Positions 5,301-21,504 of a stretch of 64,000 nt of DNA are shown one piece after another. A program made the translations under genes and the position numbers. The notes under the pieces are model-generated. The model was not told where the DNA came from, made no database searches, and saw only the letters and a list, made by a program, of their open reading frames with translations. Where the stretch lies: positions 607,234 to 671,233 of the forward strand of contig JBAZBD010000001.1 in assembly GCA_041671645.1 (NCBI GenBank). Direction: 5' to 3'. Positions within the stretch are counted from its first letter, which is position 1; the number at the start of each line of letters is the position of its first letter. This DNA is from Patescibacteria group bacterium. GTDB taxonomy: Bacteria; Patescibacteriota; UBA1384; XYA2-FULL-43-10; 1-14-0-10-43-13.

Positions 5301-5302
5301 CT

Positions 5303-6370: not shown

Positions 6371-6384
6371 TACAAATTGAGCAC

Positions 6385-6418: not shown

Positions 6419-6441
6419 TATAGTTCGAATGTATTTGAATT

Positions 6442-6831
6442 TTAGCGTTTGGCCCACTGTGGTGCTCTGCGAGCACGTTTGAGACCTGGTTTCTTGCGCT
6501 CTTTCTCTCTTGGGTCGCGGGTGAGAAGACCAGCTTTTTTCAGGGTTGTGCGGAATTCTGGGTTGAATTTCTCAAGAGCACGAGCGATACCAAGTCTGAT
6601 TGCATCGATTTGGCTGACTTTGCCGCCACCTGAGACCTTGACGCTAAGGCCAAATTTGCCTTTTTCGCCGACTAGTTCAAATGGTGAATCAATCTCAGCA
6701 GTCATCTTGGCCGCTTTGGCATTGATCAAAATCTCTTTTTCACCAGTGATTTTGACAAAAGCGACAGCGGTTTTGCGTCGGCCGATACCAGTCCAGTATT
6801 GTTTTGTTGTAGTTTCTTTCTTCTCAACCAT
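6442..6831 (-). CDS. rpsI: 30S ribosomal protein S9
   Basis: 129 aa. YWTGIGRRKTAVAFV...GGGKVSQIDAIRLGIARAL...KRARRAPQWAKR is a canonical uS9. Confidence 0.95.
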   Translation of the reverse strand: MVEKKETTTKQYWTGIGRRKTAVAFVKITGEKEILINAKAAKMTAEIDSPFELVGEKGKFGLSVKVSGGGKVSQIDAIRLGIARALEKFNPEFRTTLKKAGLLTRDPREKERKKPGLKRARRAPQWAKR

Positions 6832-6845
6832 AATATTTTGATTAT

Positions 6846-7253
6846 TTAGCTATTCTTAAATTTCGCGTTGTTGTGTGGGTGCTCGGCGCCTGCGTAAATT
6901 TTCAGACGAGCCATGAATTTGTCCTGAAGTTTGTTGTGTGGAAGCATTCCCTGAACTGCTTTTTTGATCACTTCGCCTGGGTGCTTGGTCATCAAGTCTG
7001 AAACTGTGTCAGTCTTCAAGTTTCCAAGGTAGCCAGTGTGTTTGTAATAACGTTTTTGGTCCATTTTCTTGCCGGTAAGCACGAATTTGTCAGCATTCAC
7101 GACAACAACGAAGTCGCCACCGTCCTTGTTTGGACGAAAGTCAACTTTGTTCTTGCCTCTGAGCAAATCTGCGATCTGGGTGCTCAAGCGACCTAGCGTT
7201 TGGCCAGCGGCGTCGAAAAAGTACCAGTCTCTATTTTCAGTCGTATTTTCCAT
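6846..7253 (-). CDS. rplM: 50S ribosomal protein L13
   Basis: 135 aa. WYFFDAAGQTLGRLSTQIADLLRGK is the uL13 N-terminal signature. Confidence 0.95.
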   Translation of the reverse strand: MENTTENRDWYFFDAAGQTLGRLSTQIADLLRGKNKVDFRPNKDGGDFVVVVNADKFVLTGKKMDQKRYYKHTGYLGNLKTDTVSDLMTKHPGEVIKKAVQGMLPHNKLQDKFMARLKIYAGAEHPHNNAKFKNS

Positions 7254-7699
7254 TATTTCTTCACTTTTTCTTTAACTTTTTTCTCTACTTTGACAGCTTC
7301 TTCTGTTTTCTCAGCTTTTTCAGCTTTGGTTTCAACCTTTTTGTCCTCTTTGACAACTGTTTTCTTGCCGATAAGCTCTACGCGCATCATGCTAGAATTG
7401 TCGCCAACTCTGTTTTTCAGGTGATAGCTTTTGCAGAAACCACTTTTGCGATCAGCAAATCTAGGAACTAACTCTTCGATAACTTTCTTAACTGCGTTTT
7501 TGTCGAAGAAAATAGTATTTAGATTTCTGATTACATTGAAATCAGTGCCTTTGTTGCGAGCCAATACCTTGTCGATATATGACTTAACCTCTTTGGCTTT
7601 GGCTTCGGTGGTATCGATTGTTTCATACAATACCAAAGAAGTAGCCAGGTTTCGGATTAAGTGATTTCGGTGATCGGTTTTTCTTCCAAACTTTCTCAT
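7253..7699 (-). CDS. rplQ: 50S ribosomal protein L17 with a Lys/Glu-rich C-terminal tail
   Basis: 148 aa. MRKFGRKTDHRNHLIRNLATSLVLYETIDTTEAKAKE matches bL17. The C-terminal roughly 40 aa are K/E-rich. Confidence 0.9.
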   Translation of the reverse strand: MRKFGRKTDHRNHLIRNLATSLVLYETIDTTEAKAKEVKSYIDKVLARNKGTDFNVIRNLNTIFFDKNAVKKVIEELVPRFADRKSGFCKSYHLKNRVGDNSSMMRVELIGKKTVVKEDKKVETKAEKAEKTEEAVKVEKKVKEKVKK

Positions 7700-7719
7700 A
7701 TCTGTTTCTCTGATTTATA

Positions 7720-8652
7720 TTAGCCGAGGATCATTAGGATCTCTTCAACACCCTTTTTGCCAAGACCCTTGACCTCTTCAAGCTTGAGCTGGGAGAGTTT
7801 TTTCAAACCGCCAACTGTCTTGATACCGGAGTTAAGCAAAGCGTTAAGTGTGCGTGAAGAAAGGTTTAAGTCTTCAACTTTTGTCTTGTTATCAATTTCG
7901 CCGTCAATTACAACAGCTTCTTCTCCGTCAACAGGAATTTCAAGGGCAGACTCAACGATTTCTTCTGGTGCATCACCCTCGATGAGGATAGCGCTGAAGT
8001 GGTCGATAAGTACTGTGGAAGCCTCTTTGAGAGCCTGGAAAGGAGCAACTGTACCGTTGGTGATGACTTCAAGGATAAGTTTGTCATAGTTGGTCATCAT
8101 ACCGACACGAGTGTCTTCGATATTCATGGCAACACGTAGGACTGGTGAGAAAAGAGCATCGATGCCAATCTGGCCGATTTCACCTTTTTCGCCGGTACCA
8201 ATGTGAACTGCGCGAAAGCCACGATCTTTTTCGATGGTTACTTCCATCTCGAAATTGGCACCCTTGTCGAGTGTCACGATGTGAGCATCAGGATTGATGA
8301 TTTCGATGTTGCTGTTGGCCTTGAAATCCTTGGCAGTAACAGTAGCAGGACCCTTCTTTGAGAGTTCCAAGACGACTGGTTCGTCGCTGAAAGAACGGAA
8401 TGAAACGCCCTTTAGGTTCATCATGATTTCGATAACGTCTTCTTTGGCGTGTGGTACTGCGGTAAATTCATGAGAAGCGCCTTCAATCTTGAATGAAGTA
8501 GCGGCTGCGCCAGTGATAGACGAAAGCAATACTCGGCGAATTGAATTACCGATTGTTGCACCGTAACCTGGATAAAGAGGTTCGATAGAAAACTTGGAGT
8601 GATTGTCACCCAATTTTTCTTCTGTTATTTTTGGCAAGCTGATTTTTTCCAT
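7720..8652 (-). CDS. rpoA: DNA-directed RNA polymerase alpha subunit
   Basis: The start was moved to the internal ATG (MEKISLPKI) because it is preceded by GGGAG 8 nt upstream. The track's longer start at 8691 would overlap rpsD. The core is IEPLYPGYGATIGNSIRRVLLSS. Confidence 0.9.
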   Translation of the reverse strand: MEKISLPKITEEKLGDNHSKFSIEPLYPGYGATIGNSIRRVLLSSITGAAATSFKIEGASHEFTAVPHAKEDVIEIMMNLKGVSFRSFSDEPVVLELSKKGPATVTAKDFKANSNIEIINPDAHIVTLDKGANFEMEVTIEKDRGFRAVHIGTGEKGEIGQIGIDALFSPVLRVAMNIEDTRVGMMTNYDKLILEVITNGTVAPFQALKEASTVLIDHFSAILIEGDAPEEIVESALEIPVDGEEAVVIDGEIDNKTKVEDLNLSSRTLNALLNSGIKTVGGLKKLSQLKLEEVKGLGKKGVEEILMILG

Positions 8653-8671
8653 TTTTGTATCTCCCTTAAAA

Positions 8672-9265
8672 TTATCTAGAGTAGTACTCAATAATTAGAC
8701 TTTCATTGATAGGTGTGTCAATTTCTTCACGGGCAGGTAGATGTCGGATGACAACTGTCATTTTCTTGGTATCAGTTTCTAGCCATGAAAGTGAGGTGCT
8801 GAGGGAAATTTCAGAATATGCTTCCTTTTTCTTTGGAGCGATAATGTCACCGATCTGAACCTGAATAGAAGGAGTATAGATAGGGTGACCGTTGAGAGTG
8901 AAAAGACCATGAGAAATGCACTGTCTTGCCTTCGAATGTGAAGGAGCAAATCCGGCGCGAAGAATGATATTGTCAACTCGAGTTTCGAGCAACTGCATCA
9001 AATTCTCAGTCTTGTTACCAATCATTTTCTCGGCTTTTACAACGTAGTTTTTGAATTGAGTTTCGTTGATATTATAAATGCGTTTGGCTTTCTGCTTCTC
9101 ACGAAGTTGTTTGCCATATTCACTCATTTTGCCTTTGAAACCCTGCCCAGAAGAGCCAGGAGCATAAGGACGCTTGACGATTGCACATTTGTTCGACAAA
9201 CATCTCTCACCTTTTAAGATGAGCTTAACTCCCTCACGACGGCATTTTTTGCAGGCTGTCTCCAT
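8672..9265 (-). CDS. rpsD: 30S ribosomal protein S4
   Basis: 197 aa. The N-terminal Cys cluster CKKCRREG...C..KC and the S4 domain (RLDNIILRAGFAPSHSKARQ) are present. Confidence 0.95.
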   Translation of the reverse strand: METACKKCRREGVKLILKGERCLSNKCAIVKRPYAPGSSGQGFKGKMSEYGKQLREKQKAKRIYNINETQFKNYVVKAEKMIGNKTENLMQLLETRVDNIILRAGFAPSHSKARQCISHGLFTLNGHPIYTPSIQVQIGDIIAPKKKEAYSEISLSTSLSWLETDTKKMTVVIRHLPAREEIDTPINESLIIEYYSR

Positions 9266-9292
9266 AAATATCTTCCAAAAACTTATTTACTA

Positions 9293-9703
9293 TTAAACTC
9301 TACGTGGCTTCTTCGCTCGGCAACCATTGTGCGCGAGAGGAGTAGTATCCTTGATTACAGAAGCTTCAATGTTGGCATTCGCCAAGGCTCTAACGGCAGC
9401 ATCACGACCAGGGCCAACTCCAGAAACGAATACATTCGCTTTGTGGAAGCCCCGAAGCTTTGCTTTTTCAAGAGCGTTCGCGATAGCAAGCTGAGCGGCA
9501 TAAGGAGTTGATTTCTTGGCTCCACGGAAACCCAAGGCTCCGGCGGTTGACCAAGCGATTACTCCACCATTTTCGTCTGTAACTGTAACGATGGTGTTGT
9601 TGAAGGTGGATTGGATATAAATGCTACCAGAATAAACCGGTGCCTTTTTCTTCGCTACCTTCTTGACTACTTTCTTATCTGCTTTTTTTGCTTCTTTTGG
9701 CAT
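9293..9703 (-). CDS. rpsK: 30S ribosomal protein S11
   Basis: 136 aa. IYIQSTFNNTIVTVTDENGGVIAWSTAGALGFRGAKKSTPYAAQ is a canonical uS11. Confidence 0.95.
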   Translation of the reverse strand: MPKEAKKADKKVVKKVAKKKAPVYSGSIYIQSTFNNTIVTVTDENGGVIAWSTAGALGFRGAKKSTPYAAQLAIANALEKAKLRGFHKANVFVSGVGPGRDAAVRALANANIEASVIKDTTPLAHNGCRAKKPRRV

Positions 9704-9721
9704 ATCAATATTTGTTCGTTA

Positions 9722-10105
9722 TTATTTCTTCTCTACTGCTCTTCGGCCAGAGCCCATAGTGACTTTCTTGCCACGTTTGGTACGAGCGTTGGTCTTGGTC
9801 TGTTGACCGCGAACTGGCAAGCCTTTGGCGTGACGAGTCCCTCTGTAGCTTGAAATTTCTTTCAATCGTTTGATGTTTTGGGCCACTTCAGAGCGAAGAT
9901 CACCTTCGACTTTGTAGCTTTTGCCAATGAATTGGCGAATATTTTCCAAATCTTGCTCAGTAACGTCTTTAACTCTAATATCAGGGCTAATTTTGAGCTC
10001 TTTCAGAATTTTCTGACTCAAAGGCAACCCGATACCGTACAGATATGTAAGGGCGATTTCGATTCTTTTTTCATTTGGAAGGTTGATACCACCGACTCGA
10101 GCCAT
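9722..10105 (-). CDS. rpsM: 30S ribosomal protein S13
   Basis: 127 aa. [26 protein letters not shown]...[15 protein letters not shown]. Confidence 0.95.
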
Positions 10106-10178: not shown

Positions 10179-10325
10179 TTAGCCTTGTCTCTGTTTGTGC
10201 TTTGGATTCTCACATAAGATAAAAACCCGCTTCTTCGAGCTGATTCGGGAACATTTTCCCTTCTTGCTTCGGATAACGACTTTACACTTATCACAAATTT
10301 TCTTTACGGATGCCTGTACTTTCAT
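10179..10325 (-). CDS. rpmJ: 50S ribosomal protein L36 (zinc-ribbon type, with a small insertion)
   Basis: Not in the ORF track (under 60 aa). Hand translation gives [48 protein letters not shown] (48 aa). It lies between rpsM and infA as in the canonical spc/alpha cluster. Confidence 0.85.
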
Positions 10326-11460: not shown

Positions 11461-12097
11461 TCATGGCAAGTTCAAGCGCGATAGCTTCTACGCTACGCTC
11501 GCCGTCAATCTCAAATAATTTTACATTTTCTTGGCGTAGATAATCGATGACTTCTTCCATTTTTGGAATATAGAAAGATAGTCTATTCTTGACGATTTCA
11601 GATTCATCATCAGCTCTGGTCTCGAGTATTGTGCCACATTTTGGGCAGTTACCCCGTACAGAGCTGTCATAAGTCCCGCCGCACTGCGTGCAGGTCAGTC
11701 TCCCGGCGATGCGAGCGAGTGAAGTTTCTGGCTTGATCTTAATATAGATGACAACTGGTCCAGCCCATTCAGGATTTTCTTTGATAAAATTCAGCAAGAA
11801 TTCGGCTTGGCCTCGACCAAAAGGAAAATTGTCTAGGATGATGGTGCCAGTTGCCTCGTGCAAATAATCGCTCAAAAGCTTGATAGCTACGTCGTCAGGC
11901 TGTGGCTCGCCACTGTCATATCTCTCCTTGACCGCTCTGGCATAGTCGGAATCTTCATTTCGGGCCATGTATTCTCTGATCAGCGTGCCAACACTGATAA
12001 ATAAATCCGCCCCAATTTCTTTCAAAAAGAGCTCGGCCTGTGTGCCTTTGCCCGATCCTGGTAATCCTAGAAATGAATATATTGTCTTCTTCGCCAT
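11447..12097 (-). CDS. adk: Adenylate kinase (zinc-binding LID)
   Basis: 216 aa. P-loop GLPGSGKGTQA. LID with CTQCGGTY...CPKCG. It overlaps the map start by 14 nt. Confidence 0.9.
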   Translation of the reverse strand: MAKKTIYSFLGLPGSGKGTQAELFLKEIGADLFISVGTLIREYMARNEDSDYARAVKERYDSGEPQPDDVAIKLLSDYLHEATGTIILDNFPFGRGQAEFLLNFIKENPEWAGPVVIYIKIKPETSLARIAGRLTCTQCGGTYDSSVRGNCPKCGTILETRADDESEIVKNRLSFYIPKMEEVIDYLRQENVKLFEIDGERSVEAIALELAMIAHE

Positions 12098-12112
12098 GTT
12101 TTTGCTTTTAGT

Positions 12113-13384
12113 TTAATATCGTTCGTAAGTATGCATGGTGATCTGAGATTGAACTTGTCGCATTGTTTCGATCACGACGGAGACCACGATCAATATGCCC
12201 GTGCCGCCCAGGACCAAGGTGGTTAGGTTGGTAAGAGATTGTATGATAAATGGCAAGACTGCGATCAGACCCAAGAAGAGTGCGCCAAAAAGAGTAATAC
12301 GATTGATGACTAACCCGAGATATTTCTTGGTTTCGGTGCCCGGACGAATGCCAGGGATGAAGCCACTCTGTTTCTGCAGGTTTTCGGCGATTTGCTCAGG
12401 CTTGAAAACTACGCTGGTGTAGAAATATGTGAAGATAATGACTAAAGCGAAATATAGTACGCCGTACCAAACTTCATTTGCGAGGAAGGAGTTCACGCCT
12501 TTGGCAAAGTTGGCCAGCCAAACTGATCTAGCGGTCTCTAAGTATTTGGCCATGAAACCAGGGATGACCAGGATGCTCATGGCAAAGATAATAGGAATCA
12601 CACCTGCGATATTGACCCTGATTGGCAGATGGCTTGAGTAGCCTCCAGATTGGCCATTACGCGATTTTCGGGCATAGGTAACAGGAATATTGCGCTGTCC
12701 TTCCTGAATCATAATAATGGCGGCGGTGATAAGTAGGAACACTACTAGAAATACGATCGCACCAATAATTTTGGAACTGTCCCCGCTTTGCAACAGCAAA
12801 GCAGTATCACGAACCTGAGAAGGTATGCCCGAGAGAATGCCAAGGGCGATAATCATCGAAGTTCCATTGCCTATCCCCTTTTCTGTGATCAACTCGCCAA
12901 TCCACATCAACAGCATTGAGCCGGCCGTGACGGAAATAAGCATGGTCAAGAGATCAAAAGGAGTCCAGGTCGGAATGATTCCCTGATTGCGAAGAAGGAC
13001 CAGCATTGAGTAAGCCTGAATGATCGCAAGTGGGACTGTGGCTAGTCTAGTGTATTGTGTGATCTTCTGACGTCCAGCTTCACCCTCTTTTTGGAGTTGC
13101 TCGACGGCAGGAAAAATCATACCGAGTAATTGAAATATAATAGATGCAGTAATGTATGGGCCAACACCCATCAGGATAATTGAAAAGTTGGCCATAGTAC
13201 CACCGGAAAACATGTTTAGGAAGCCAAACACCTGGTTTTGAGAGAAGAAAGTCTCTAATTGCTGAAGATTGACCCCAGGTAGCGGGACGTGAGCTAGGAT
13301 TCTGGTCAACAGCAAAAGTCCACCTGCTACCAGGATTTTGTTGCGTAAGTCTTTGTACTCCCAAAATTTCAGTAATTTATCCAT
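12113..13384 (-). CDS. secY: Preprotein translocase subunit SecY
   Basis: 423 aa polytopic membrane protein with SecY signature regions (GGTMANFSIILMGVGPYITASII, TEKGIGNGTSMII). Confidence 0.95.
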   Translation of the reverse strand: MDKLLKFWEYKDLRNKILVAGGLLLLTRILAHVPLPGVNLQQLETFFSQNQVFGFLNMFSGGTMANFSIILMGVGPYITASIIFQLLGMIFPAVEQLQKEGEAGRQKITQYTRLATVPLAIIQAYSMLVLLRNQGIIPTWTPFDLLTMLISVTAGSMLLMWIGELITEKGIGNGTSMIIALGILSGIPSQVRDTALLLQSGDSSKIIGAIVFLVVFLLITAAIIMIQEGQRNIPVTYARKSRNGQSGGYSSHLPIRVNIAGVIPIIFAMSILVIPGFMAKYLETARSVWLANFAKGVNSFLANEVWYGVLYFALVIIFTYFYTSVVFKPEQIAENLQKQSGFIPGIRPGTETKKYLGLVINRITLFGALFLGLIAVLPFIIQSLTNLTTLVLGGTGILIVVSVVIETMRQVQSQITMHTYERY

Positions 13385-13623
13385 GATTGAAGGATCTGTC
13401 TAATAACTACTCTCGAAACGAAAACGAGAATATTTCGAGCGAGAAGAAGGAAGTGTAAGGAAAGGTAGATATCTCTACCTTGACGAGCAGTTCGTTCTTT
13501 GCAGCCGGAATAGGCCGTTTGCAGTTATCAGATGTAGTTGTTCGATAGATTCTACGTTTACTATACATTAATTCTCAGAGTAAATCAACGATTATTTCGG
13601 CATATTTTGGATAAATTTTGAAA

Positions 13624-13662
13624 ATAAAAAGACCACCGATTTCGGTGATCTTGGTCTTTATC
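13624..13662. terminator. Hairpin terminator downstream of the YfiH-like gene
   Basis: AAAAAGACCA ccgatttcggtgatc TTGGTCTTT: a 7-8 bp stem with a nested CCGAtttCGG hairpin, T-rich after it. Confidence 0.45.
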
Positions 13663-14446
13663 TGGTGCGATGCAAAAATGCGCAATCGCGCGGTGAATAG
13701 GGGTGCTCCGGGTCTAACCCTTTGACCCGGCAATACTGATCGGACCCCCATCTGGTCGCTCCGCCTAATCGTGCGCAGAATGGACAATCGTGAGCATTCG
13801 GAATTCCGCAGTTGAAACGCAGGATTTGGTCGACACCATGATCGGCGAAAACCCACTCTATGGCGCTGGTGACATCATAGCCCTGAGTGTCCCAGACGGT
13901 CTTGCAAGCAAACCTGTCCAGATCCGTACCAGCTACAGCGCTAATGTCTGGTAGCTCGTAGTGCTTACCGCAGATAGCTGGCCCGATAAAGAGCGACGTT
14001 TCCTCCGGGGAGTCAGGCCATTTCTGCATGAAACTCTGGATCAAGCCTCCGAACAGTTCCGGCCGACCGACATGCATGAAGGCCATGTGGTCAAATCCCA
14101 TCACTACGATGCATGCGCAATCAGCAACCAAAGTCTCAAGGCTGATTCGCCACCAGCGTGGGAAAATGATCGAGTCACAATTGACCGTGGTATGAGAATT
14201 TGGCATCTCGTTTAGTACCAGGACTTGATTGTGCTCTTTGTGAGCGAGGGACATATGGACAATTGGTCCATAGGCCTTTCCAATTGTTTGCTCGATTGCG
14301 ATACGGGCCGCTACGGCAGTAGTATCTGGGTCTTGCACATTGCCTATCGGGAAATCACCTTGTTTCCCAGTTGAATGAAGGTAGGACAGATCCCACCCTT
14401 GCATCGTACGACTTGTCAAGTCGTCGCGTAAATCTGGCAGTGACAT
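13658..14446 (-). CDS. YfiH/PgeF/LACC1-family (DUF152, laccase-domain) protein, GC-rich
   Basis: 262 aa. ADCACIVVMGFDHMAFMHVGRPEL resembles the YfiH T-ADC-PVL...AAHAGWRG core, and IGPAICGKHYEL resembles IGPSI..ECYEV. RBS AAGGAGGG. GC is about 55%. Confidence 0.5.
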   Translation of the reverse strand: MSLPDLRDDLTSRTMQGWDLSYLHSTGKQGDFPIGNVQDPDTTAVAARIAIEQTIGKAYGPIVHMSLAHKEHNQVLVLNEMPNSHTTVNCDSIIFPRWWRISLETLVADCACIVVMGFDHMAFMHVGRPELFGGLIQSFMQKWPDSPEETSLFIGPAICGKHYELPDISAVAGTDLDRFACKTVWDTQGYDVTSAIEWVFADHGVDQILRFNCGIPNAHDCPFCARLGGATRWGSDQYCRVKGLDPEHPYSPRDCAFLHRTR

Positions 14447-14492
14447 TCATCTGCCCTCCTTGTTTTCCGATTGTTCAGACAAAAATTTCTGA

Positions 14493-14527
14493 ACTCAACA
14501 GCATAGCAAAAACCTCGCCCCTTGACA
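14493..14527 (-). promoter_or_regulatory. Sigma70-like promoter (TTGTCA-17-TATGCT) for the YfiH-like gene
   Basis: Minus-strand reading: TTGTCA aggggcgaggtttttgc TATGCT. Its -35 sits within CTTGACAAG at 14521-14529, shared with the divergent plus-strand promoter. Confidence 0.4.
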
Positions 14528-14550
14528 AGAGCAGAACTACATGATATACT
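14522..14550 (+). promoter_or_regulatory. Near-consensus sigma70 promoter (TTGACA-17-TATACT), distal promoter of a long leader
   Basis: TTGACA at 14522-14527, a 17-nt spacer, then TATACT at 14545-14550. There is no ORF for about 440 nt downstream until the ATG at 14995. Confidence 0.5.
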
Positions 14551-14748
14551 AGCAACACTTGATAGTTTTTGTACTAAGTATTAAGTGATTGACTAAGGTT
14601 CTGGTGCCAATTTTGCACTCTCTCCAATCTCAACCAAATTTATTGGCGTTTTATCGTCCAAGGGCTGAGCAACTTACAGAGAAATACAGTATCTAGTCAC
14701 AGCAAATTTGTACTATTTGTCTTTAATGACACGCTAATTTTACGCCCT

Positions 14749-14762
14749 CCGCCAGCTGGCGG
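14749..14762. repeat. Perfect palindrome CCGCCAGCTGGCGG (16 bp with flanks: TCCGCCAGCTGGCGGA), copy 1
   Basis: Exact 16-mer TCCGCCAGCTGGCGGA. The same sequence recurs at 28863-28878. Confidence 0.8.
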
Positions 14763-14867
14763 ATTGGGCAAGTCTATGATCCCCCGAATATTCTGACCAT
14801 ATAATTGGTCAATCGCCGGCACTCCGAGACAACAATAAAATTAGCTGTCATCACAGAACTTTGTATA

Positions 14868-14896
14868 TTGACTTATTTGTCATTTTGTACTATGAT
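14868..14896 (+). promoter_or_regulatory. Near-consensus sigma70 promoter (TTGACT-17-TATGAT), proximal promoter of the 14995 gene
   Basis: TTGACT at 14868-14873, a 17-nt spacer, then TATGAT at 14891-14896. About 90 nt upstream of GGAGG-ATG. Confidence 0.5.
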
Positions 14897-14994
14897 ATGC
14901 TATTCCTGTTAGAGAATATTGCTAACTATTTTTGTTGGTAATTTCTCCGATAGGAGGCTGACATGCTAGGCATGCAGTGATGAGGAGGTATCTT

Positions 14995-15468
14995 ATGAAG
15001 ATGCTCAATTACCTTACCGATCCGGTAAATAACATCGCCGAGTTTGGCGATAATTTGTCGGAGAAACCAGAGGATGCCGAGATCGCGGGCGTATTGCCTG
15101 AAGAACTTCGGACAATTGCCATACGCTTAGCCAATATGGCAGAAGTCGTCAAGGAGGCGCAATCCAGGATCGAGGACATAGAAGATCGCTCCACAATCCT
15201 TGAGGCAGTCGAGGAGATCAATACGCTTGCCATAATGCATAACGCAATCAACGATGCATTTTGGTCAGACGTCAGAGCCTCCAATAGCAATCTCACCGAC
15301 GACCTCGGCATATCCAAAGGCTGGAAAGTCTGGCAGCGCAAAGCGGCCAAATTGCCAGAATGCGATACCATCAATTGCGCAGATTGCCTTGCGAGCATTA
15401 TCTGCCCGATCCGGGGTCGCTCTGATGGCTCCAAAATCATTCACGTAGGCATCCGCGTGATCCGTTAA
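14995..15468 (+). CDS. Hypothetical protein (start refined to the RBS-supported ATG)
   Basis: 157 aa. GGAGG lies 6 nt before the ATG at 14995 (MKMLNYLTD...). The track's GTG at 14977 was rejected. The C-terminus has a Cys cluster ECDTINCADCLASIICP. No family was recognised. GC is moderately high. Confidence 0.55.
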   Translation: MKMLNYLTDPVNNIAEFGDNLSEKPEDAEIAGVLPEELRTIAIRLANMAEVVKEAQSRIEDIEDRSTILEAVEEINTLAIMHNAINDAFWSDVRASNSNLTDDLGISKGWKVWQRKAAKLPECDTINCADCLASIICPIRGRSDGSKIIHVGIRVIR

Positions 15469-15477
15469 ACATTTCGA

Positions 15478-15530
15478 AAGACCATCAATTTCAAGACTTT
15501 ACATCTTGATCGGTGGTCTTTTCGCCTTTT
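15478..15530 (+). terminator. Putative terminator after the 14995..15468 gene
   Basis: ACCATCAA ..loop.. TTGATCGGT stem followed by CTTTTCGCCTTTT. Confidence 0.35.
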
Positions 15531-15686
15531 ATGACACAAAAAAGCCGATCGTGACAGTCATTGACTTCCGGTCAGAATGGAGTAAAGTTAAATCATTAGG
15601 TACGGTTTTCAGAAGGATAATATCTTTTCGAAATCCTATCTGGGAGAGTCGTAGCATACGGGCTCTCTCTTTTTCTATCCAAATTC

Positions 15687-15851
15687 TTATTGCTTGTCGT
15701 ACTTTTCGACAAATGCCTTGACCGCTTCAATATTTTCGAGAACTAATTTTGCTTTTTTCACACCAAACTGAAAAGGATATTGATCTTCTTCATTGTTCTT
15801 CAATACGATCATTTTGTTACCCTTGAACTCGGACTCTTCGACAATAGACAT
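15687..15851 (-). CDS. Hypothetical small protein (54 aa)
   Basis: Not in the track. GGAGGAG RBS 5 nt before the ATG. Translates to MSIVEESEFKGNKMIVLKNNEEDQYPFQFGVKKAKLVLENIEAVKAFVEKYDKQ. It lies directly downstream of the YkgJ-like gene. Confidence 0.4.
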   Translation of the reverse strand: MSIVEESEFKGNKMIVLKNNEEDQYPFQFGVKKAKLVLENIEAVKAFVEKYDKQ

Positions 15852-15923
15852 AAATCTCCTCCAACTAGTTTTTAATATATCGATATTCTACCAAAGCTTC
15901 GATCATTTGGTAAGGGCAAAACG

Positions 15924-16253
15924 TCATTCTGCTATCTCGGCCTTGGATCGTTGAATCAGTTCTATCATCTTGCCATATCGCTGGTCGTCCGATTTGCAGA
16001 AGAATTCTCGACACACCTTCGGCCTGTCGGTGTGGATGCTACAATTATCATTTTCCAGGTATATACAGCCGCCATCATCATTCTTGGCTAGGAGATTGGC
16101 GCCGCATCCGCTTGCCAATTCAAAATCTTCAATGAGATCTATGTCACCAAAAAAGAGCTGGAATTTCCCAGAGCGGTACTCCTGTTCGTCGAGATTGATA
16201 AGGAAATGCTTGCAACAGATGCCGCATCGATCACATGTGTGTTTGTCGCTCAT
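15924..16253 (-). CDS. YkgJ-family CxxCxxCC putative zinc/iron-chelating protein (UPF0153)
   Basis: 109 aa. The N-terminal CDRCGICC is the hallmark of PF03692. Additional Cys at GGCIYL, NCSIH and VCREFFC. Confidence 0.6.
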   Translation of the reverse strand: MSDKHTCDRCGICCKHFLINLDEQEYRSGKFQLFFGDIDLIEDFELASGCGANLLAKNDDGGCIYLENDNCSIHTDRPKVCREFFCKSDDQRYGKMIELIQRSKAEIAE

Positions 16254-16281
16254 GAGGAAGCTTGATTTAAATTAGTACTCG

Positions 16282-17736
16282 TTAAACTTTGCCAAGATCA
16301 ATGTACTCGTCAAACCTGATCTGACTAACAAAATCTGGCATATGGCTGACCATAATCATGGCGCCCTTGTATTGATCGATTGCTTTCGCGATAACTGGAA
16401 GGTGTCTAAAGTTTATGTGGTTGGTCGGCTCGTCCATAATGAGCAGTCCCGGCTCCATCAATACCAATCTGGCGAAGGAGAGGAGGCCTTTTTGGCCTTC
16501 GGAGAGCTCACTAACCTTGTGGCCCATCAATCCGCCGCCGATTAGAAACCCGGCTGCTATCGAGCGCATTGTCTGAATATCCGTGTCCCCCATTTTGGCG
16601 CTGGCGAGAGAATCAAATACCGTCTGTTCGAAATCTAGATTCGAAAAATCCTGGCTGTAATAGCCTATACGTACCCCCTCTAATATTTCTGCTTTTGTAT
16701 TTTGGCCAGAGACTAGAGATCGGAGGAAGGTGCTTTTGCCGATCCCGTTTGGACCGGTCACGATACAGTGCATCCTTTTGCGGATTATCTTATCTACCTT
16801 GAGAGTGTGAACTTCATGGTCGCGAAAGGCTGATAATTCTGTGATTTTGACAATATCGCCGACAATTTCTTGCATCGGGATATCGAACTCTCTAATGGTT
16901 CTGTCCTCGTGCCTGACGTCGATAATGTCTTCTTCCATCTCGGCGGCTTCATCCTTCAGCTTTTTGGCCAACTGGCGCATCTTGCCGCCCTTGTTTGAGA
17001 AGAAGTTTACCTTCTCTTTGCGATCGATGATTGCGCGTCGAAGCTGGGCGTTTTTGCGCTCTTCACTCTCGACTCGCCTCTTGATCTCTTCGACAACTGA
17101 GTAATAGTCGCCAAGGTAATATTCAATCTTGTGTGTAAAATTGTTGAGATAGATGACACCTTCGGTGAAGCAGTTTAGGAAGTCCGCATCATGTGAGATC
17201 ACAATTACGGTTTTCTGATACATAATCAGAAATTCGATTAGGTGATCGATGCCAGACTGATCGAGATTGTTGGTCGGTTCATCGAGCAAGAGAATATCGG
17301 AGTTCTGAATCAAGGCGAAAGCAAGCAAAAGCCTAGCCTGTTGGCCGCCAGACAAATCTCCGACCAAACGATCGGTAGGAACGCTCAAATTAACCACCTC
17401 CATCGCTTTGTGGACCTTGCTGATTAGATCATTTGATTGAGTGGCGAAGGCCATCGCAAAGTATTCCAGGATTGTCTTTGTGAGATCCTGGCGATTCACG
17501 ACCTGCTTGGCCGTAGCGATGGTGATGTCTTTGGCGATGTTGATTTGGCCCTTCTTTGGCTTGAGCTCACCGGTAATCATGTTGAAGAGCGAGCTTTTGC
17601 CAGCGCCGTTTTGGCCCATCAAGGTAATTTTGGAATTTCTGCGCACAGAAAAGCTAGCCTCATCCAGAAGCGGCTTGTCGTGCTGATATTCAAAGGAAAC
17701 TTCGTCAAATCTAAGGATTACTTCTTCATTCATATT
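16282..17736 (-). CDS. ABC-F family ATPase (two tandem ABC domains, no TMD)
   Basis: Start set at the internal ATG (MNEEVILRFDEV...). Walker A GQNGAGKSS and signature LSGGQQARL in domain 1, GPNGIGKST and LSEGQKGLL in domain 2. A charged inter-domain linker and the absence of a membrane domain fit ABC-F. Confidence 0.85.
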   Translation of the reverse strand, partial: NMNEEVILRFDEVSFEYQHDKPLLDEASFSVRRNSKITLMGQNGAGKSSLFNMITGELKPKKGQINIAKDITIATAKQVVNRQDLTKTILEYFAMAFATQSNDLISKVHKAMEVVNLSVPTDRLVGDLSGGQQARLLLAFALIQNSDILLLDEPTNNLDQSGIDHLIEFLIMYQKTVIVISHDADFLNCFTEGVIYLNNFTHKIEYYLGDYYSVVEEIKRRVESEERKNAQLRRAIIDRKEKVNFFSNKGGKMRQLAKKLKDEAAEMEEDIIDVRHEDRTIREFDIPMQEIVGDIVKITELSAFRDHEVHTLKVDKIIRKRMHCIVTGPNGIGKSTFLRSLVSGQNTKAEILEGVRIGYYSQDFSNLDFEQTVFDSLASAKMGDTDIQTMRSIAAGFLIGGGLMGHKVSELSEGQKGLLSFARLVLMEPGLLIMDEPTNHINFRHLPVIAKAIDQYKGAMIMVSHMPDFVSQIRFDEYIDLGKV

Positions 17737-17852
17737 TTGGCCCAAAAATAAAAGGGCGCGATTAACGCCGATGACAATAGTATAACATATTTTATTCAAA
17801 AACACACTCCGCCAGCCGTTGTTGGCGAAATTAAAAACTCAGAGCAAAAAGG

Positions 17853-17942
17853 CTAGCTTCGAGTCAGTGGTCCTAGACCCTTTTGCTTCTTGTTTTTCTT
17901 TGGTTTCTTGACCTCTTTTTTGGCATTTTGATCCTTGCCCAT
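17853..17942 (-). CDS. Possible 29-aa lysine-rich peptide
   Basis: GGAGGG RBS 5 nt before the ATG. MGKDQNAKKEVKKPKKNKKQKGLGPLTRS. It starts 24 nt after the stop of the preceding gene. This is speculative. Confidence 0.2.
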   Translation of the reverse strand: MGKDQNAKKEVKKPKKNKKQKGLGPLTRS

Positions 17943-17966
17943 ATACCCTCCACAAATATTATAAAA

Positions 17967-18242
17967 TTATTCTTTGCTGTCCCAAAACTCTTCGGCCTCG
18001 TCCTCTAGCTTCTCCAGCCGATCGTAGTAATCAGGGAACTCGTTCAGATGTGCCAATGCAATCTTGCCCGTGATAAGTGGATCATCGTTGGTCACATTGG
18101 TCGACTCGTCCACGAGACCGTGCTCAAGCTCGACGTCCATACCTTGGCGAAATTGGTCAACATCAAACTTGTCCCATTCGATTCCCAGTCTCTCCCCTAT
18201 TTCCTGCGATTGTTCAACCGTAAATTTTTTCTTTCCAGACAT
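17967..18242 (-). CDS. Conserved small acidic protein of unknown function (DUF-type; widespread in bacteria and phages)
   Basis: 91 aa. MSGKKKFTVEQSQEIGERLGIEWDKFDVDQFRQGMDVELEHG...NVTNDDPLITGKIALAHLNEFPDYY matches a recurrent uncharacterised family known to me from memory. The exact Pfam ID is not certain. Confidence 0.5.
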   Translation of the reverse strand: MSGKKKFTVEQSQEIGERLGIEWDKFDVDQFRQGMDVELEHGLVDESTNVTNDDPLITGKIALAHLNEFPDYYDRLEKLEDEAEEFWDSKE

Positions 18243-18253
18243 GATTCTCCTTG

Positions 18254-18745
18254 TTAAAATATTTTTTGCTTGCCACAGCCAGACCCTAGGCTAGGCGTTG
18301 TGTCGACAATTTGTGCTTTATTTCGATCGTTATTAGTATTCTCCCCACTATCCTTCGCACCAAAATATGAGACTATTCCGGTAGCTAGCGCCAGGATTGG
18401 GATAATATATAGCCATTTCATTTTGTTATTTTTGTTCCAATGGCTTACTAAATATACCGAAAGAAAGGCAGCAAAAGCAAAGGCGAAGTATGCAAGATAG
18501 TAATCGGTACGTGAAATATTTACAATCAGGCTGAAATATCCATATAATCCCCAGACAGAGAAAACAACTATGCCCGCTTTTGTTAAAAAATCCAAGAGCG
18601 CCTTTTTGCGGAGGGAGTTGACTATGATACGAATTATCACGAAGCCAACAAACAAAGCCACTAGCACATCAGTGGCACCGATCGTGAGAAAATAGATGCT
18701 GAAAAATAAAGGGTCGGGAGAGATACAATAAAGTTTTTTGGACAT
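18254..18745 (-). CDS. Hypothetical integral membrane protein
   Basis: 163 aa with 4-5 predicted TM helices. No recognisable motif. Confidence 0.5.
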   Translation of the reverse strand: MSKKLYCISPDPLFFSIYFLTIGATDVLVALFVGFVIIRIIVNSLRKKALLDFLTKAGIVVFSVWGLYGYFSLIVNISRTDYYLAYFAFAFAAFLSVYLVSHWNKNNKMKWLYIIPILALATGIVSYFGAKDSGENTNNDRNKAQIVDTTPSLGSGCGKQKIF

Positions 18746-18830
18746 TTCTTCCCTTCTTATCTAAGACATGCATTCCTGCGAACGACTGCTCTATATATAT
18801 TTTCTCCTATTTTTCTTTTATAATCAAATT

Positions 18831-19361
18831 ATGGAAAACGTAGAGTTTAGAAAACTGACGCAGAAAGATGAGAATGCCTATAATATTTATATAGGTGAAT
18901 TTCTTGATGCTGGCGAAGAAGTTATCCCTCGATCTATATTTAAAACAAATTTATCTTTCAAACAATGGCTCAAACAAAGACATGACTTTGAGAAAGGTAT
19001 TAATTTGCCAGTAGATAGGGTGAAGGCCACCACTTTCTTTCTAATCAGAAAACACGACGGAAAAATTCTTGGCGCGCTCGACTTACGGCATGAGCTAACT
19101 GAGCATTTATTGAAATTTGGCGGTAATATTGGATATGGAGTTGCGCCGTCCGAGAGGAAGAAAGGTTATGCCAATTATATGCTTGCAACAGCGTTGCCCA
19201 TATGCAAAGGATTGGGATTAGAAAAAGTTCTAATAACTTGCAACAAAGAAAATACCGGCTCCGCCCGAACAATCCAAAAGAACGGCGGCGTTTTAGAAAA
19301 CGAAGTCGACTATGATGGTGTGACTAGGCAAAGATATTGGATAGATTTGAATTCTGAATAA
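18831..19361 (+). CDS. GNAT-family N-acetyltransferase
   Basis: Start set at MENVEFRKL, with TATAAT 10 nt upstream (possibly leaderless or a short leader). The acetyl-CoA-binding core is ...GYGVAPSERKKGYANYML... Confidence 0.7.
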   Translation: MENVEFRKLTQKDENAYNIYIGEFLDAGEEVIPRSIFKTNLSFKQWLKQRHDFEKGINLPVDRVKATTFFLIRKHDGKILGALDLRHELTEHLLKFGGNIGYGVAPSERKKGYANYMLATALPICKGLGLEKVLITCNKENTGSARTIQKNGGVLENEVDYDGVTRQRYWIDLNSE

Positions 19362-19371
19362 ACTGTAATGT

Positions 19372-19408
19372 AAAAAAAATCCCCCCGATGTTGTCGGGGG
19401 GATTTTTG
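19372..19408. terminator. Bidirectional Rho-independent terminator (GNAT gene and rplO convergent)
   Basis: A8 run, then ATCCCCCCGA tgttg TCGGGGGGAT (perfect 10-bp stem), then TTTTTG. Confidence 0.8.
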
Positions 19409-19415
19409 TGAGTAC

Positions 19416-19922
19416 TTATTTGGTTTCTGTCTTCTTGACTGTTTTCTTAGGAGCCTTTGGAGCGGCTGGAGTCTTTTCTACCTTTGGAGCTTTCTCTTCA
19501 GCAACTTCGGCTTTGGCAACTTTTTTTGCCGGAATTTTGACTGATTTGGAGACTTTGACTTCTTTTGAGAATTCAACTGACTTGGTGAGCTCACCATTGT
19601 TTAGAATCTTGGCAGCTTCGAATATTCGGATCATGCCCTTCTCAACCAGCAATTTGTGAGTAACTGTCTCGCCATCTTTGAAAGCGGCAGAAATCTGGTC
19701 GAGAGAAATAACAATTGGTTTGCGCTTGTGGGAGGTGAATCCTGGAAGCTTTGGCAATCTCATTGAAAGTGGAGTCTGACCACCCTCAAATCTCTTTGGC
19801 AGGTTAAAACCACTGCGTGATCTCTGTCCTTTGGTACCGCGACCGGCGGTCTTACCCTGACCAGCTGCGATTCCGCGACCGACGCGTTGTTTTGTTTTAG
19901 ATTTTGTGGAAATTAGGTTCAT
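19416..19922 (-). CDS. rplO: 50S ribosomal protein L15 with a Lys/Ala/Pro-rich C-terminal extension
   Basis: 168 aa. KQRVGRGIAAGQGKTAGRGTKGQRSRSG is the uL15 signature. The C-terminal roughly 45 aa are low complexity. Confidence 0.95.
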   Translation of the reverse strand: MNLISTKSKTKQRVGRGIAAGQGKTAGRGTKGQRSRSGFNLPKRFEGGQTPLSMRLPKLPGFTSHKRKPIVISLDQISAAFKDGETVTHKLLVEKGMIRIFEAAKILNNGELTKSVEFSKEVKVSKSVKIPAKKVAKAEVAEEKAPKVEKTPAAPKAPKKTVKKTETK

Positions 19923-19931
19923 TATAACTTT

Positions 19932-20621
19932 CTATTTCATGCTTTTCTTAGCGGCTTTTTTGGTGGTTTTCTTGACGGCTTTTTTCTCTTCCTCAACTGG
20001 GGCTTCGGCAACGACTTCTAGAGGTTTGATTTTGACGTCCTGAGCTTCGATAAGTTTCTTCTTGGCTTCGCTTCTATCAGTAATGATCTTGGTATATGAA
20101 GCGTCAAAAGATGAGAAAGCCTTGAGTGTTGCCATGACGTTGTTCAATTTGTTTGGACTGCCCATCATTTTGGAAAGAAGATCTGTGATGCCAGCAAGCT
20201 CTGCAACTGCGCGAACGCTTCCACCAGCAACAATTGAAGTACCAGAGGTGGCTGGGCGAAGCATGACAACTGCTGAAGCGAATTTGGTAGTCATTTCGTA
20301 AGGAATTGTACCATTGATAATTGGTACGATAATCATATCTTTTTTGGCCGCAACAACTGCTTTTTTGACAGCTTCAGAAACATCATTGGCCTTGCCGATA
20401 CCGGCGCCAACTTTGCCCTTCTTGTTGCCAATTACAACCAAAGCGCGGAAACGAATACGTCGTCCGCCTTTGACGGTACGAGCGACTCTGCGCACTTCAA
20501 TAACTCGCTCTTCGAACTCAGAATCTCTTTTCTCACCCTCGTATTTGCGAGGACGCATGAAATTCTTTGTCGCACGAGCTGGTTGGTTGGCTGCATCCAA
20601 ATTTGTAGTATTATCTACCAT
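19932..20621 (-). CDS. rpsE: 30S ribosomal protein S5 with N- and C-terminal extensions
   Basis: 229 aa. ERVIEVRRVARTVKGGRRIRFRALVVIGNKKGKVGAGIGKANDV is the uS5 core. It directly abuts rplO, with no rpmD/L30 gene between them. Confidence 0.95.
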   Translation of the reverse strand: MVDNTTNLDAANQPARATKNFMRPRKYEGEKRDSEFEERVIEVRRVARTVKGGRRIRFRALVVIGNKKGKVGAGIGKANDVSEAVKKAVVAAKKDMIIVPIINGTIPYEMTTKFASAVVMLRPATSGTSIVAGGSVRAVAELAGITDLLSKMMGSPNKLNNVMATLKAFSSFDASYTKIITDRSEAKKKLIEAQDVKIKPLEVVAEAPVEEEKKAVKKTTKKAAKKSMK

Positions 20622-20640
20622 TTATATTCCTTTATTTCGA

Positions 20641-20955
20641 CTAGAAGACTAGACCGCCTTTACGAAGGCCTTCGGCTAGGCTTTTGACTTGACCATGATA
20701 TTTAAAGTTGCTTCGGTCATAAATAACTTGGGCGATTTTTTTGGTTTTGGCTATTTTGGCAAGTTCCTCGCCCAAAGCAAATGCTCTCTCGACTGGTTTA
20801 CCAGTCTTGATAGACTTCGAAGTCATACCAAGAATGGTGATGCCTTTTTCGTCATCGATAAATTGAGCAGTGATAGCTTTGTTGGATCGGAATATTGCAA
20901 CTCTTGGACGAATCGCTGTACCCCATAATTTTTTGTTGAATGTATTTAATGTCAT
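20641..20955 (-). CDS. rplR: 50S ribosomal protein L18
   Basis: 104 aa. RPRVAIFRSNKAITAQFIDDEKGITI...LAEGLRKGGLVF. Confidence 0.95.
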   Translation of the reverse strand: MTLNTFNKKLWGTAIRPRVAIFRSNKAITAQFIDDEKGITILGMTSKSIKTGKPVERAFALGEELAKIAKTKKIAQVIYDRSNFKYHGQVKSLAEGLRKGGLVF

Positions 20956-20964
20956 GAAATTCCT

Positions 20965-21504
20965 TTATTTAGACGCTGCTGTTTTGCCAGCTTTTCGTCT
21001 AATATGTTCCTCTTTGTATTTGATACCTTTGCCCTTATATGGCTCTGGTGGTCTGACTTCGCGCACCTTTGCGGCAAATTGTCCGACTTGCTGTTTGTCT
21101 ATGCCAGAGGTAATAATTGAGTTTTTGACAACTTTGACTTCTAGGTTCGATGGAATTTCTAATTTGATATCATGGGAATAACCCATAGCGAGAACCAGCT
21201 CAGATCCGACAACGGCGGCGCGGTATCCAGTACCCATGAAGGTAAGTTCTCTCGTAAAACCAGCGCTTACACCAGTGATCATATTGGCAATCAATCTGGC
21301 GATAAGACCATGTTTTGATTTGGCAATTTTACTGTCGTTGATTCGAGAAACCAAAACGTTACCGTCTTCGATTTTGACAGTTGTTTCGTGTGGGATAGTC
21401 AGCTCAAGTGTCTTCTCGCCTGATTTTGCAGTGAAAAGATTGGCACTCAATGTGACTTCTACGCCCTCTTCAATTTTTACTGGTCTTTTACCTATTTTGC
21501 TCAT
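20965..21504 (-). CDS. rplF: 50S ribosomal protein L6
   Basis: 179 aa. MSKIGKRPVKIEEGVEV...GTGYRA...EPYKGKGI. Confidence 0.95.
   Translation of the reverse strand: MSKIGKRPVKIEEGVEVTLSANLFTAKSGEKTLELTIPHETTVKIEDGNVLVSRINDSKIAKSKHGLIARLIANMITGVSAGFTRELTFMGTGYRAAVVGSELVLAMGYSHDIKLEIPSNLEVKVVKNSIITSGIDKQQVGQFAAKVREVRPPEPYKGKGIKYKEEHIRRKAGKTAASK

Follow-up and report, generated by a model that had tools for sequence, protein, structure and literature searches.

We analysed a 64,000-nucleotide (nt) stretch of a Patescibacteria group bacterium (contig JBAZBD010000001.1, positions 607,234 to 671,233; hereafter the window), in which rplO, the gene for ribosomal protein L15, and secY are separated by a gap of 6,031 bp (13385-19415). 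Our preferred explanation, to which we assign a probability of about 0.7, is that the spc operon is broken at the rplO|secY boundary across the window's family, that this junction has been invaded recurrently and that the gap in the window is a mosaic fill. The S10-spc-alpha cluster is the textbook example of a gene order frozen for billions of years, usually explained by co-transcription or "operon concatenation". The minus strand of the window carries the canonical S10-spc-alpha string. Here rplO closes the upstream ribosomal transcription unit, the region being collinear with relatives as far as this gene, and secY heads a downstream unit beginning secY-adk-map-infA. The open reading frame (ORF) list and hidden Markov model (HMM) scans of the window found no rpmD in the ribosomal string.

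The rplO-secY junction in the window and its family

A sequence-only reading of this DNA had placed rplO and secY 6 kb apart, with nine genes between bounding hairpin terminators. The ORF list and HMM scans bore this out. All nine protein genes are present, including a K-rich ORF of 29 amino acids (aa) that is conserved in relatives, and two strong terminators enclose them, at 19375-19407 and 13629-13652 (Table 1). The first of these serves both rplO and GNAT, which converge on it. As the window comes from a metagenome-assembled genome and its gap edges are hairpins, we considered an assembly or binning artefact, that is, a chimeric join at repeated terminator sequences. A Logan contig from an independent assembly (L081, SRR18595301) matches the window at 100% identity for 21,272 bp, covering the whole interval and both edges, and no part of the interval is repeated elsewhere in the window. 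In a different assembly, GCA_964526355.1 (L165, SecY 96% identical), the ABC-F, YkgJ and orf54 genes of the gap are contiguous with secY, confirming the right-hand join, and a further relative (L166) confirms GNAT and the candidate RNA gene described below upstream of secY. Because the independent assembly is identical and L165 supports the right-hand join, a chimera is very unlikely, and we give it next to no weight.

For a survey of this junction, secY loci with 10-kb flanks were taken from GTDB species representatives and Joint Genome Institute (JGI) metagenomes, and closer relatives were added through the protein database. Counts were made after removal of duplicates, which left 113 loci outside the window's family and 12 genomes inside it (given below as L numbers). 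The family is delimited by SecY identity, >=62% within and <=56% to all others; several members are named Berkelbacteria, and we refer to the group as Berkelbacteria-like Patescibacteria. Outside the family, rplO lies directly upstream of secY in 111 of the 113 Patescibacteria loci, with a median true spacer of 21.5 nt, in agreement with the earlier premise that the two genes normally adjoin. The exceptions are L120, with a 795-nt gap, and L010, with no rplO or rpsE nearby. Inside the family, the junction is split in 7 of 12 genomes and adjacent in 5 (Fisher p = 2.4e-7 against the outside loci). The idea of an integration hotspot, also put forward from the sequence, therefore holds at the family level, where the splits have unrelated contents, and not beyond it, where only 2 of 113 loci depart from adjacency.

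The window's gap of 6.0 kb carries the nine-gene block, and L165 shares part of that block. L166 (SecY 85% identical to the window) is split by more than 10 kb, with other genes in addition to GNAT and the RNA. L001 (77%) has a gap of 1,987 bp with a 127-aa ORF, a Nudix gene and a 129-aa ORF, and L171 (78%) has 1.45 kb with a 93-aa ORF and an NYN protein. L168 (71%) holds a 127-aa ORF and a peptidase M3 in 2.6 kb, while L087 (69%) holds a PaaX-like protein, a weak IS110-like protein, a TIM barrel and a heliorhodopsin in 6,678 bp. The adjacent genomes, L088, L002, L169, L172 and L003 (63-78%), have no gap contents, and two of these, L002 and L003, are the closest GTDB relatives. One orthologous site is thus polymorphic for presence or absence of cargo among family members. 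All-against-all BLASTP showed the gap proteins to be mutually unrelated across fills, except between the window and L165 and for the GNAT of the window and L166. The seven split genomes therefore hold five mutually unrelated gene sets, in gaps of 1.45 kb to >10 kb. On the SecY tree, split and adjacent genomes are interspersed, which indicates at least five independent events. The simplest history, as far as these comparisons go, would be at least five independent invasions of the same rplO|secY junction.

As an observation in its own right, the L087 junction (3342-10000) holds a heliorhodopsin matching PF18761 at E 7e-101; the PaaX-like protein there is PaaX/Cas2-like, and the sub-threshold IS110-family match belongs to a protein of 444 aa.

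We also weighed whether an ancestral, lineage-wide gene order explains the split. L165 shares ABC-F-YkgJ-orf54-RNA upstream of secY, and L166 is likewise split, with GNAT and the RNA in common. Since both share parts of the block, the split appears to be inherited within a genus-level clade. Above that level, however, the five adjacent family genomes and the 111 of 113 adjacent outgroup loci refute it, and gene content differs between the window and its 85% relative apart from GNAT and the RNA. As an account of the split, ancestral order is highly improbable. The synteny check proposed with the sequence-only reading gave the same divided picture: an identical gap in close relatives is not found at the family level, L002, L003, L088, L169 and L172 being adjacent, whereas L165 shares the right-hand part. 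In L166, the 10 kb of contig read upstream of secY contains no rplO or rpsE, and its arrangement may, judging by gene content, be compatible with full separation of the operon halves.

Transcription signals coincide with this boundary. Where the family junction is unsplit (five genomes), rplO and secY are 76-113 nt apart. An A-run/GC-stem/T-run hairpin stands directly 3' of rplO in four of these, and the motif GTTGATTT-N17-TATAGT/TATATT, likewise in four, lies about 7-15 nt upstream of the secY ATG. Only the TTGATTT part of this promoter is seen in L172, where the annotated SecY has six additional residues, so that the true start may be 18 nt downstream. The motif is kept near the ATG in L165, L169, L088, L001, L171, L168 and L002, and its -10 ends about 7-20 nt before the ATG in most family members (including L169, L088, L001, L171 and L168). 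With the promoter so close to the start codon, the secY mRNA is predicted to be leaderless or near-leaderless in most of the family. Compared with other members, the window alone carries an extra, non-repeated segment of ~165 nt between promoter and ATG, giving a secY 5' untranslated region (UTR) of about that length.

Split members show the same terminator right after rplO and the same promoter right before secY, with the cargo between them; in L087 the promoter was not seen. Gaps measuring 1.45-6.7 kb are bordered exactly by the rplO terminator on one side and the secY promoter on the other. Outside the family, the spacer is 2-40 nt, with neither terminator nor secY promoter signal. A strict rule for a terminator-like hairpin <=110 nt from the rplO stop picked out 6 of 9 loci inside the family and 7 of 124 outside it. 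The family junction comparison revealed no att-like conserved sequence at the insertion points, where the secY promoter alone is conserved. These signals predict that transcription of the spc operon is interrupted at rplO|secY in the window's family. The terminator after rplO and the separate secY promoter would insulate the spacer transcriptionally. DNA inserted between them would then disturb neither neighbour, and the spacer could therefore act as a neutral landing pad.

Origin and build-up of the nine-gene block

The features of the gap and its edges are collected in Table 1.

Table 1. Features of the rplO-secY gap and its borders, in window coordinates and in order of transcription of the ribosomal string.
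Feature	Coordinates	Strand	Description
rplO (L15)	19416-19922	-	TIGR01071, 120.6 bits; 168 aa, C-terminal tail K/A/E-rich
Bidirectional intrinsic terminator, left gap edge	19375-19407	.	perfect 14-bp arms, 5-nt loop, 5' A-run, 3' T-run
GNAT acetyltransferase	18831-19361	+	176 aa as called, ORF opens at 18768; Pfam Acetyltransf_3, Acetyltransf_1
Predicted membrane protein	18254-18745	-	163 aa; variable gene
DUF5661 protein	17967-18242	-	91 aa; PF18905, E 7.7e-22; variable gene
pep29	17853-17942	-	K-rich 29-aa ORF (MGKDQNAKKEVKKPKKNKKQKGLGPLTRS); syntenic with ABC-F
ABC-F control region	17734-17831	-	terminator-like hairpin after pep29, extended -10, leader hairpin
ABC-F ATPase	16282-17733	-	483 aa; two PF00005 domains; true start 17733
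YkgJ-type CxxCxxCC protein	15924-16253	-	109 aa; PF03692, E 8.5e-10
orf54	15687-15851	-	conserved 54-aa protein; syntenic with ABC-F
Terminator hairpin and T-run	15476-15535	+	ends the hyp163 transcript; also stops any RNA read-through
hyp163	CDS 14977/14995-15468	+	157 aa from 14995; own ribosome-binding site; promoter 14868-14896, TTGACT-17-TATGAT
Candidate structured noncoding RNA gene	14522-14862	+	promoter 14522-14550; transcript ~14555-14862, ~308 nt
PgeF-like protein	13658-14446	-	262 aa; divergent Cu-oxidase_4/YfiH family, PF02578, E 5.5e-12, residues 37-208
Intrinsic terminator 3' of PgeF-like gene	13629-13652	-	10-bp stem, then T-run
secY promoter and 5' UTR, right gap edge	13385-13588	-	TTGATT-17-TATAGT at 13588-13560
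secY	12113-13384	-	TIGR00967, 407.7 bits

A foreign genomic island, with the 6 kb acquired horizontally and integrated by a mobile-element mechanism, finds little in the interval itself. The check for foreign composition suggested earlier came out native throughout: tetranucleotide distance z-scores run from -0.5 to +1.3, GC from 0.39 to 0.49 in 1-kb windows, and per-gene GC from 0.35 to 0.52 against 0.449 for the window. Scans with Pfam, NCBIfam, PHROG and PADLOC found no recombinase, integrase or transposase among the nine ORFs. No flanking direct or inverted repeats were found, the repeat search over 12800-20200 giving only short chance-level pairs, and neither a tRNA anchor within 8 kb nor a tmRNA is present. 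Some cargo does fit the island account: the rare PgeF-like protein has 10 homologs besides itself among 5.8 billion proteins, its gene has a GC of 52% and is missing from the 96% relative, hyp163 is close to an ORFan, and the L087 gap holds its weak IS110-like protein (Transposase_20 E 0.0025, below cutoff). The largest gene, ABC-F, is nevertheless vertically inherited, its co-divergence with SecY contradicting the whole-block version, and the differences from relatives are nested and stepwise, so the block did not come as one piece. We consider a foreign island quite unlikely. Within the block, just the PgeF-like gene and hyp163 can plausibly be called accessory DNA; the term does not suit the core, with its native composition and core ABC-F.

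The junction resembles integration hotspots and genomic islands as generally understood in being one orthologous site with varied cargo and conserved core-gene borders. Unlike those, it shows no integrase, att-like repeats, tRNA anchor or compositional signature, and its cargo includes a core housekeeping gene. Since no recombinase or repeats are visible, illegitimate or homologous recombination is suggested.

The ABC-F protein carries the motifs of an intact ATPase in its translation (Walker A GQNGAGKS/GPNGIGKS, signature LSGGQ/LSEGQ, Walker B LLLDEPTN/LIMDEPTN, catalytic Glu intact). Its helical inter-domain linker is ~80 aa, and it has no arm, no C-terminal extension and no membrane domain. 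Two nucleotide-binding domains, a linker and the lack of a membrane domain are shared with the named ABC-F ATPases (EttA, Uup, YbiT, YheS; PoxtA, Msr, Vga, Lsa). Unlike these, the window protein is short and armless, and it belongs to its own very conserved clade in candidate phyla radiation (CPR) bacteria, accompanied by the 29- and 54-aa ORFs. No named subfamily scored above its NCBIfam cutoff: the best match, the generic NF000355, reached 298.7 bits against 380, and EttA, Uup and Sal reached 220 against 599, 199 against 900 and 221 against 725. Antibiotic-resistance (ARE)-type models were also below cutoff, with Msr at 183/680, Vga 177/725, Lsa 146/750 and OptrA 136/1450. The nearest PDB entries are PoxtA (183 bits) and YheS, EttA, Uup and YbiT (~160 bits).

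More than 120 homologs of this ABC-F, at 71-87% identity and nearly all of 483 aa, occur across Patescibacteria, and the protein is more conserved than SecY itself. Its identity and that of SecY to the window are 95 and 96% for L165, 87 and 85% for L082/L166, and 77 and 73% for one 971-kb contig; for further pairs on shared contigs they are 75 and 71%, and 76 and 70%. At the DNA level, the window and L165 are 83% identical over the ABC-F block and 79% over secY. ABC-F identity thus falls in step with SecY identity, which marks it as the genome's own vertically inherited copy. By these sequence measures, it is a core, vertically inherited CPR gene of predicted translation-factor type. Its presence in nearly all related CPR genomes, with constant length and high conservation, argues against the ARE class. 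We found no specific literature on ABC-F in CPR.

Small companion genes travel with it. The pep29 gene lies upstream of ABC-F in L082, L083 and L084 at 83-90% identity, and many nucleotide differences between its copies are silent at the peptide level (by eye from the alignment, uncounted). The ABC-F leader (window 17734-17800) contains a GGCG-N5-7-CGCC hairpin and U-run, placed 12-20 nt upstream of the ATG, that look like an attenuator; this leader hairpin and the -10 are kept in L082, L083 and L084, even with another gene between pep29 and ABC-F. Downstream of ABC-F, orf54 has copies of 53-54 aa in L082, L083, L084 and L165 (85-100% identity). Its single-sequence AlphaFold2 model has a beta-beta-beta-alpha-alpha order at low confidence (mean predicted local distance difference test score, pLDDT, 65.5), and PDB and Pfam searches at E<=10 were empty for both orf54 and pep29. 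The YkgJ gene adjoins ABC-F in L165 (84% identity) and orf54 in L168 (58%). No such association with the module is seen for DUF5661, the membrane protein, the PgeF-like gene or hyp163. The notion of an ABC-F with accessory proteins therefore stands as far as the 29- and 54-aa ORFs are concerned, and fails in its tie to the ribosomal cluster, which is not seen elsewhere.

Two observations concern these genes. Between the window and L165 (1820-1984), orf54 is 100% identical as protein and 87% identical at third codon positions, where neighbouring genes reach 51-58%; this suggests either extra nucleotide-level constraint or recent gene conversion. Pif1-type helicase and DUF2164 genes recur near ABC-F in L082, L083 and L176, in neighbourhoods that are otherwise unrelated.

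ABC-F proteins act on ribosomes, and the module's position next to the ribosomal and secY genes could have been selected for co-regulation or gene dosage. The conserved unit of pep29, ABC-F, orf54 and YkgJ agrees with such a functional placement, as does L168, where the module also lies within ~10 kb of the alpha operon. Against it, the ABC-F gene has its own promoter, and a terminator, the antisense GNAT and further genes lie between it and rplO. Elsewhere ABC-F is ~100 kb from secY on the same contig (L172/L176), beside RadA-PBP1-TyrRS (L083, L084), or among restriction-modification and PD-(D/E)XK genes (L082), and the gaps of relatives hold functionally unrelated genes (Nudix, NYN, peptidase M3, heliorhodopsin). 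We regard functional placement as unlikely. None of the usual neighbours RadA, PBP1 and TyrRS occurs in the 64-kb window, so the vacated site is not seen there.

Comparison with relatives indicates how the gap changed. By blastn and MAFFT, the window and L165 are continuous from ABC-F through YkgJ and orf54, and again from secY onward. Relative to L165, the window has exactly two extra segments, 13596-14520 (PgeF-like gene and terminator) and 14867-15495 (hyp163 and promoter). The edges of the hyp163 segment share the microhomology ACTTT, and L165 keeps only the 3' half of the hyp163 terminator. Given these edges and the retained arm, deletion in L165 is as likely as insertion in the window. 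L166 shares only GNAT and the RNA, with other genes between and around them; its probable ABC-F lies on another contig from the same sample (L082, 87% identical). As L165 has ABC-F-YkgJ-orf54 and lacks the PgeF-like gene and hyp163, the gap, as read from these alignments, was filled or pared back over at least two steps.

Judging by which of these genes the relatives carry, we propose the following order. GNAT and the ~308-nt RNA gene, both antisense to secY and common to the 85% relative, would have come first. The native ABC-F module (pep29, ABC-F, YkgJ, orf54), common to the 96% relative, would have settled between them; DUF5661 and the membrane protein may or may not have come with it. The last step would concern the PgeF-like gene and hyp163, which have a promoter and a terminator apiece and flank the RNA in this genome only, whether gained here or lost from the 96% relative by microhomology deletion. 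Since each unit carries its own promoter or terminator, the block is better described as a probable mosaic of independent transcription units than as an operon extension.

Several points weigh against an operon break with recurrent invasion. With 12 genomes chosen by SecY similarity, the family sample is small. L003, the deepest family member, has a promoter-like sequence and no clear terminator, the stems after rplO in L001 and L168 are imperfect and visible only in RNAfold output, and the strict terminator rule recovered just the six of nine family loci given above. The L165 contig ends inside ABC-F, so that comparison excludes the left half of the block (GNAT to pep29). That L082 (ABC-F) and L166 (secY) are one genome is drawn from a shared sample and matching divergence only. 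Finally, insertions followed by clean deletions could have left the terminator and promoter behind as a scar, in which case the pair would not be what made insertion possible.

The operon break with recurrent invasion has a precedent in the invasion-separation model derived in Gammaproteobacteria and Bacilli, in which a few genes first invade an inter-operon region of the concatenated ribosomal operons and the halves later drift apart (PMC8046335). In that work, secY was outside the spc operon in 1 of 204 genomes, Bacillus selenitireducens (PMC8046335). The present case shares its main features: a few genes are inserted at a transcription-unit boundary in the ribosomal cluster, and the invaders are mostly native and not long-distance horizontal transfers, in events that accumulate in particular clades (PMC8046335; PMC6735719). 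Here the native origin follows from ABC-F/SecY tracking in five genome pairs and from composition, with the PgeF-like gene and hyp163 excepted. In the model further events enlarge the gap, and L166 may represent the fully separated stage. Unlike the breaks between operons in those studies (PMC8046335; PMC6735719), the break here lies inside the classical spc operon, at L15|SecY, and the same site was struck at least five times within one family. The phenomenon is thus an already known mode of operon-cluster decay that is new in its site, a boundary within the spc operon. We found no specific literature on rplO-secY insertions.

If this explanation is true, there would be a landing pad inside the most conserved bacterial gene cluster, and whether co-transcription holds the cluster together could be put to a direct test. 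A terminator and a secY promoter acquired at L15|SecY, with that position alone repeatedly invaded, would be a natural experiment fitting the co-transcription explanation. In practice, binning and annotation pipelines based on synteny or marker genes will go wrong on these genomes if they take rplO-secY adjacency for granted, and the gap contents would serve as cheap strain and genus markers. The conserved CPR ABC-F with its two tiny ORFs and the unclassified RNA offer targets for studying translation in organisms with reduced ribosomes.

A candidate structured RNA in the gap

The sequence-only reading had described two near-consensus promoters and a 440-nt leader before hyp163. Both promoters are present, at 14522-14550 and 14868-14896. 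The supposed leader is no leader but a conserved candidate RNA gene distinct from hyp163, which is served by the second promoter; in L165 and L168, the RNA has no gene downstream of it in the same orientation. A riboswitch-like leader for hyp163 was rejected on the latter ground and on L166, where the downstream gene is unrelated.

Homologs of the RNA occur in L165, L166 and L168, each in intergenic DNA. In the window, its promoter reads TTGACA-17-TATACT with a TG extension. The -35, CTTGACAA, is invariant in the four genomes while the spacer varies, and the TG-extended -10 TATACT is identical in three and TAAGAT in L168. This conserved promoter assigns the transcribed strand as plus in the window. 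Intrinsic terminators stand 3' of the RNA in L166 and L168, and from promoter orientation the RNA of L165 is predicted to be transcribed divergently from the secY promoter. Identity over the block 14521-14866 is 95.9% with L165, where third codon positions in the flanking secY and ABC-F genes reach 51-58%, and 77.9% with L166, where third codon positions reach 43%.

Folding supports structure. The minimum free energy z-score is -4.5, and RNAalifold on the four sequences gave 70 pairs with 96% of cells paired. Compensatory double changes occur at 13 pairs. Column shuffles gave 5.3+/-1.5 such pairs, and none of 500 came up to 13; slid controls gave 0-2. With just four sequences, this covariation is suggestive and not conclusive.

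Searches gave no known family for the RNA. Rfam 15 returned no match, with nothing at E<=1 over 12000-21000 and nothing meaningful at E<=10 over 14500-14900; over the whole window, only two tRNAs passed the gathering threshold. The diagnostic motifs of RNase P, SRP RNA and tmRNA are absent by eye, and ARAGORN found no tmRNA. An nhmmer profile and a 3'-domain covariance model run over ~2.5 Mb of fetched loci recovered the four known copies only, and an exact-pattern scan of viral contigs gave 0 hits. A tRNA with a group I intron was rejected by eye, as tRNA exon features are lacking. A coding region was also rejected, the sole ORF (41 aa, minus strand) being frameshifted by a 13-nt indel in L165.

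Established Rfam RNA families (6S, RNase P, SRP, tmRNA and the large ornate RNAs) are likewise promoter-driven, terminator-ended, stand-alone and a few hundred nt long; unlike them, the candidate matches no Rfam 15 model. We regard it as probably a genuine new structured RNA, with some reservation. More tentatively, and at slightly less than even odds, we propose jointly that the RNA is a new abundant class in Berkelbacteria-like CPR bacteria and that secY has been rewired as an independent near-leaderless gene and landing pad. Within that joint proposal, the RNA may be ancestrally divergent from the secY promoter and perhaps made of two related domains.

Two observations on the RNA sequence stand beside this. 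The 3'-domain covariance model weakly matches the 5' half of the same RNA, at L166 7312-7435 and L165 2312-2440 (25.9 bits, E 0.001, and 19.5 bits), which hints at an origin by internal duplication of a ~130-nt module. A 14-nt GC palindrome, CCGCCAGCTGGCGG, occurs twice in the window (14749-14762 and 28864-28877), with none expected by chance. The copy within the RNA is a 13-nt insertion relative to L165, and the palindrome may be a small hairpin-forming repeat.

Other gap genes and side observations

GNAT has an ortholog in L166 with 61% identity, in the same orientation and ~5.5 kb upstream of secY; judged from the loci compared, it is the oldest shared occupant of the gap. The membrane protein has no Pfam, NCBIfam, PHROG or PADLOC match and no homolog in any fetched locus, and DUF5661 was not found near secY or ABC-F in the relatives examined.

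The near-ORFan status of hyp163 is reflected in 7 hits at E<=1e-3 among 1.84 billion representatives, the best non-self hit being 33% identical. The PgeF-like gene, with a GC of 52.2% against 44.9% for the window, is found among close relatives in this genome only. Its ten homologs besides the protein itself comprise four at 37-60% identity and six at 26-29%, and one, 58% identical, sits elsewhere behind a CsoR-like repressor. The Pfam Cu-oxidase_4 model passes (46.1 against 22.9), and the PgeF equivalog TIGR00726 fails (18.7 bits against a cutoff of 141.15). The Cu-oxidase_4 domain is shared with PgeF/YfiH; unlike PgeF, the window protein has extra N- and C-terminal segments, is extremely rare and has a homolog linked to a CsoR-type metal repressor. 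The terminators of the PgeF-like gene and hyp163 share a 14-nt perfect inverted match (13627-13640 and 15509-15522; AAAAGACCACCGAT and ATCGGTGGTCTTTT), and they end the genes of the two segments missing from L165.

Two further observations lie outside the gap. A tRNA gene at 28487-28562 (minus strand), directly adjoining tRNA-Lys(UUU), shows an apparent 8-nt anticodon loop (UUUAUAGG). ARAGORN reads its anticodon as the four bases "tata", Rfam scores it as tRNA at 53.7 bits, and it could be tRNA-Ile(UAU)-like or of quadruplet type. The rpmJ gene (L36) at 10179-10325 (minus strand) encodes 48 aa, as in L165 and L172, ~10 residues above the usual 37-38 aa.

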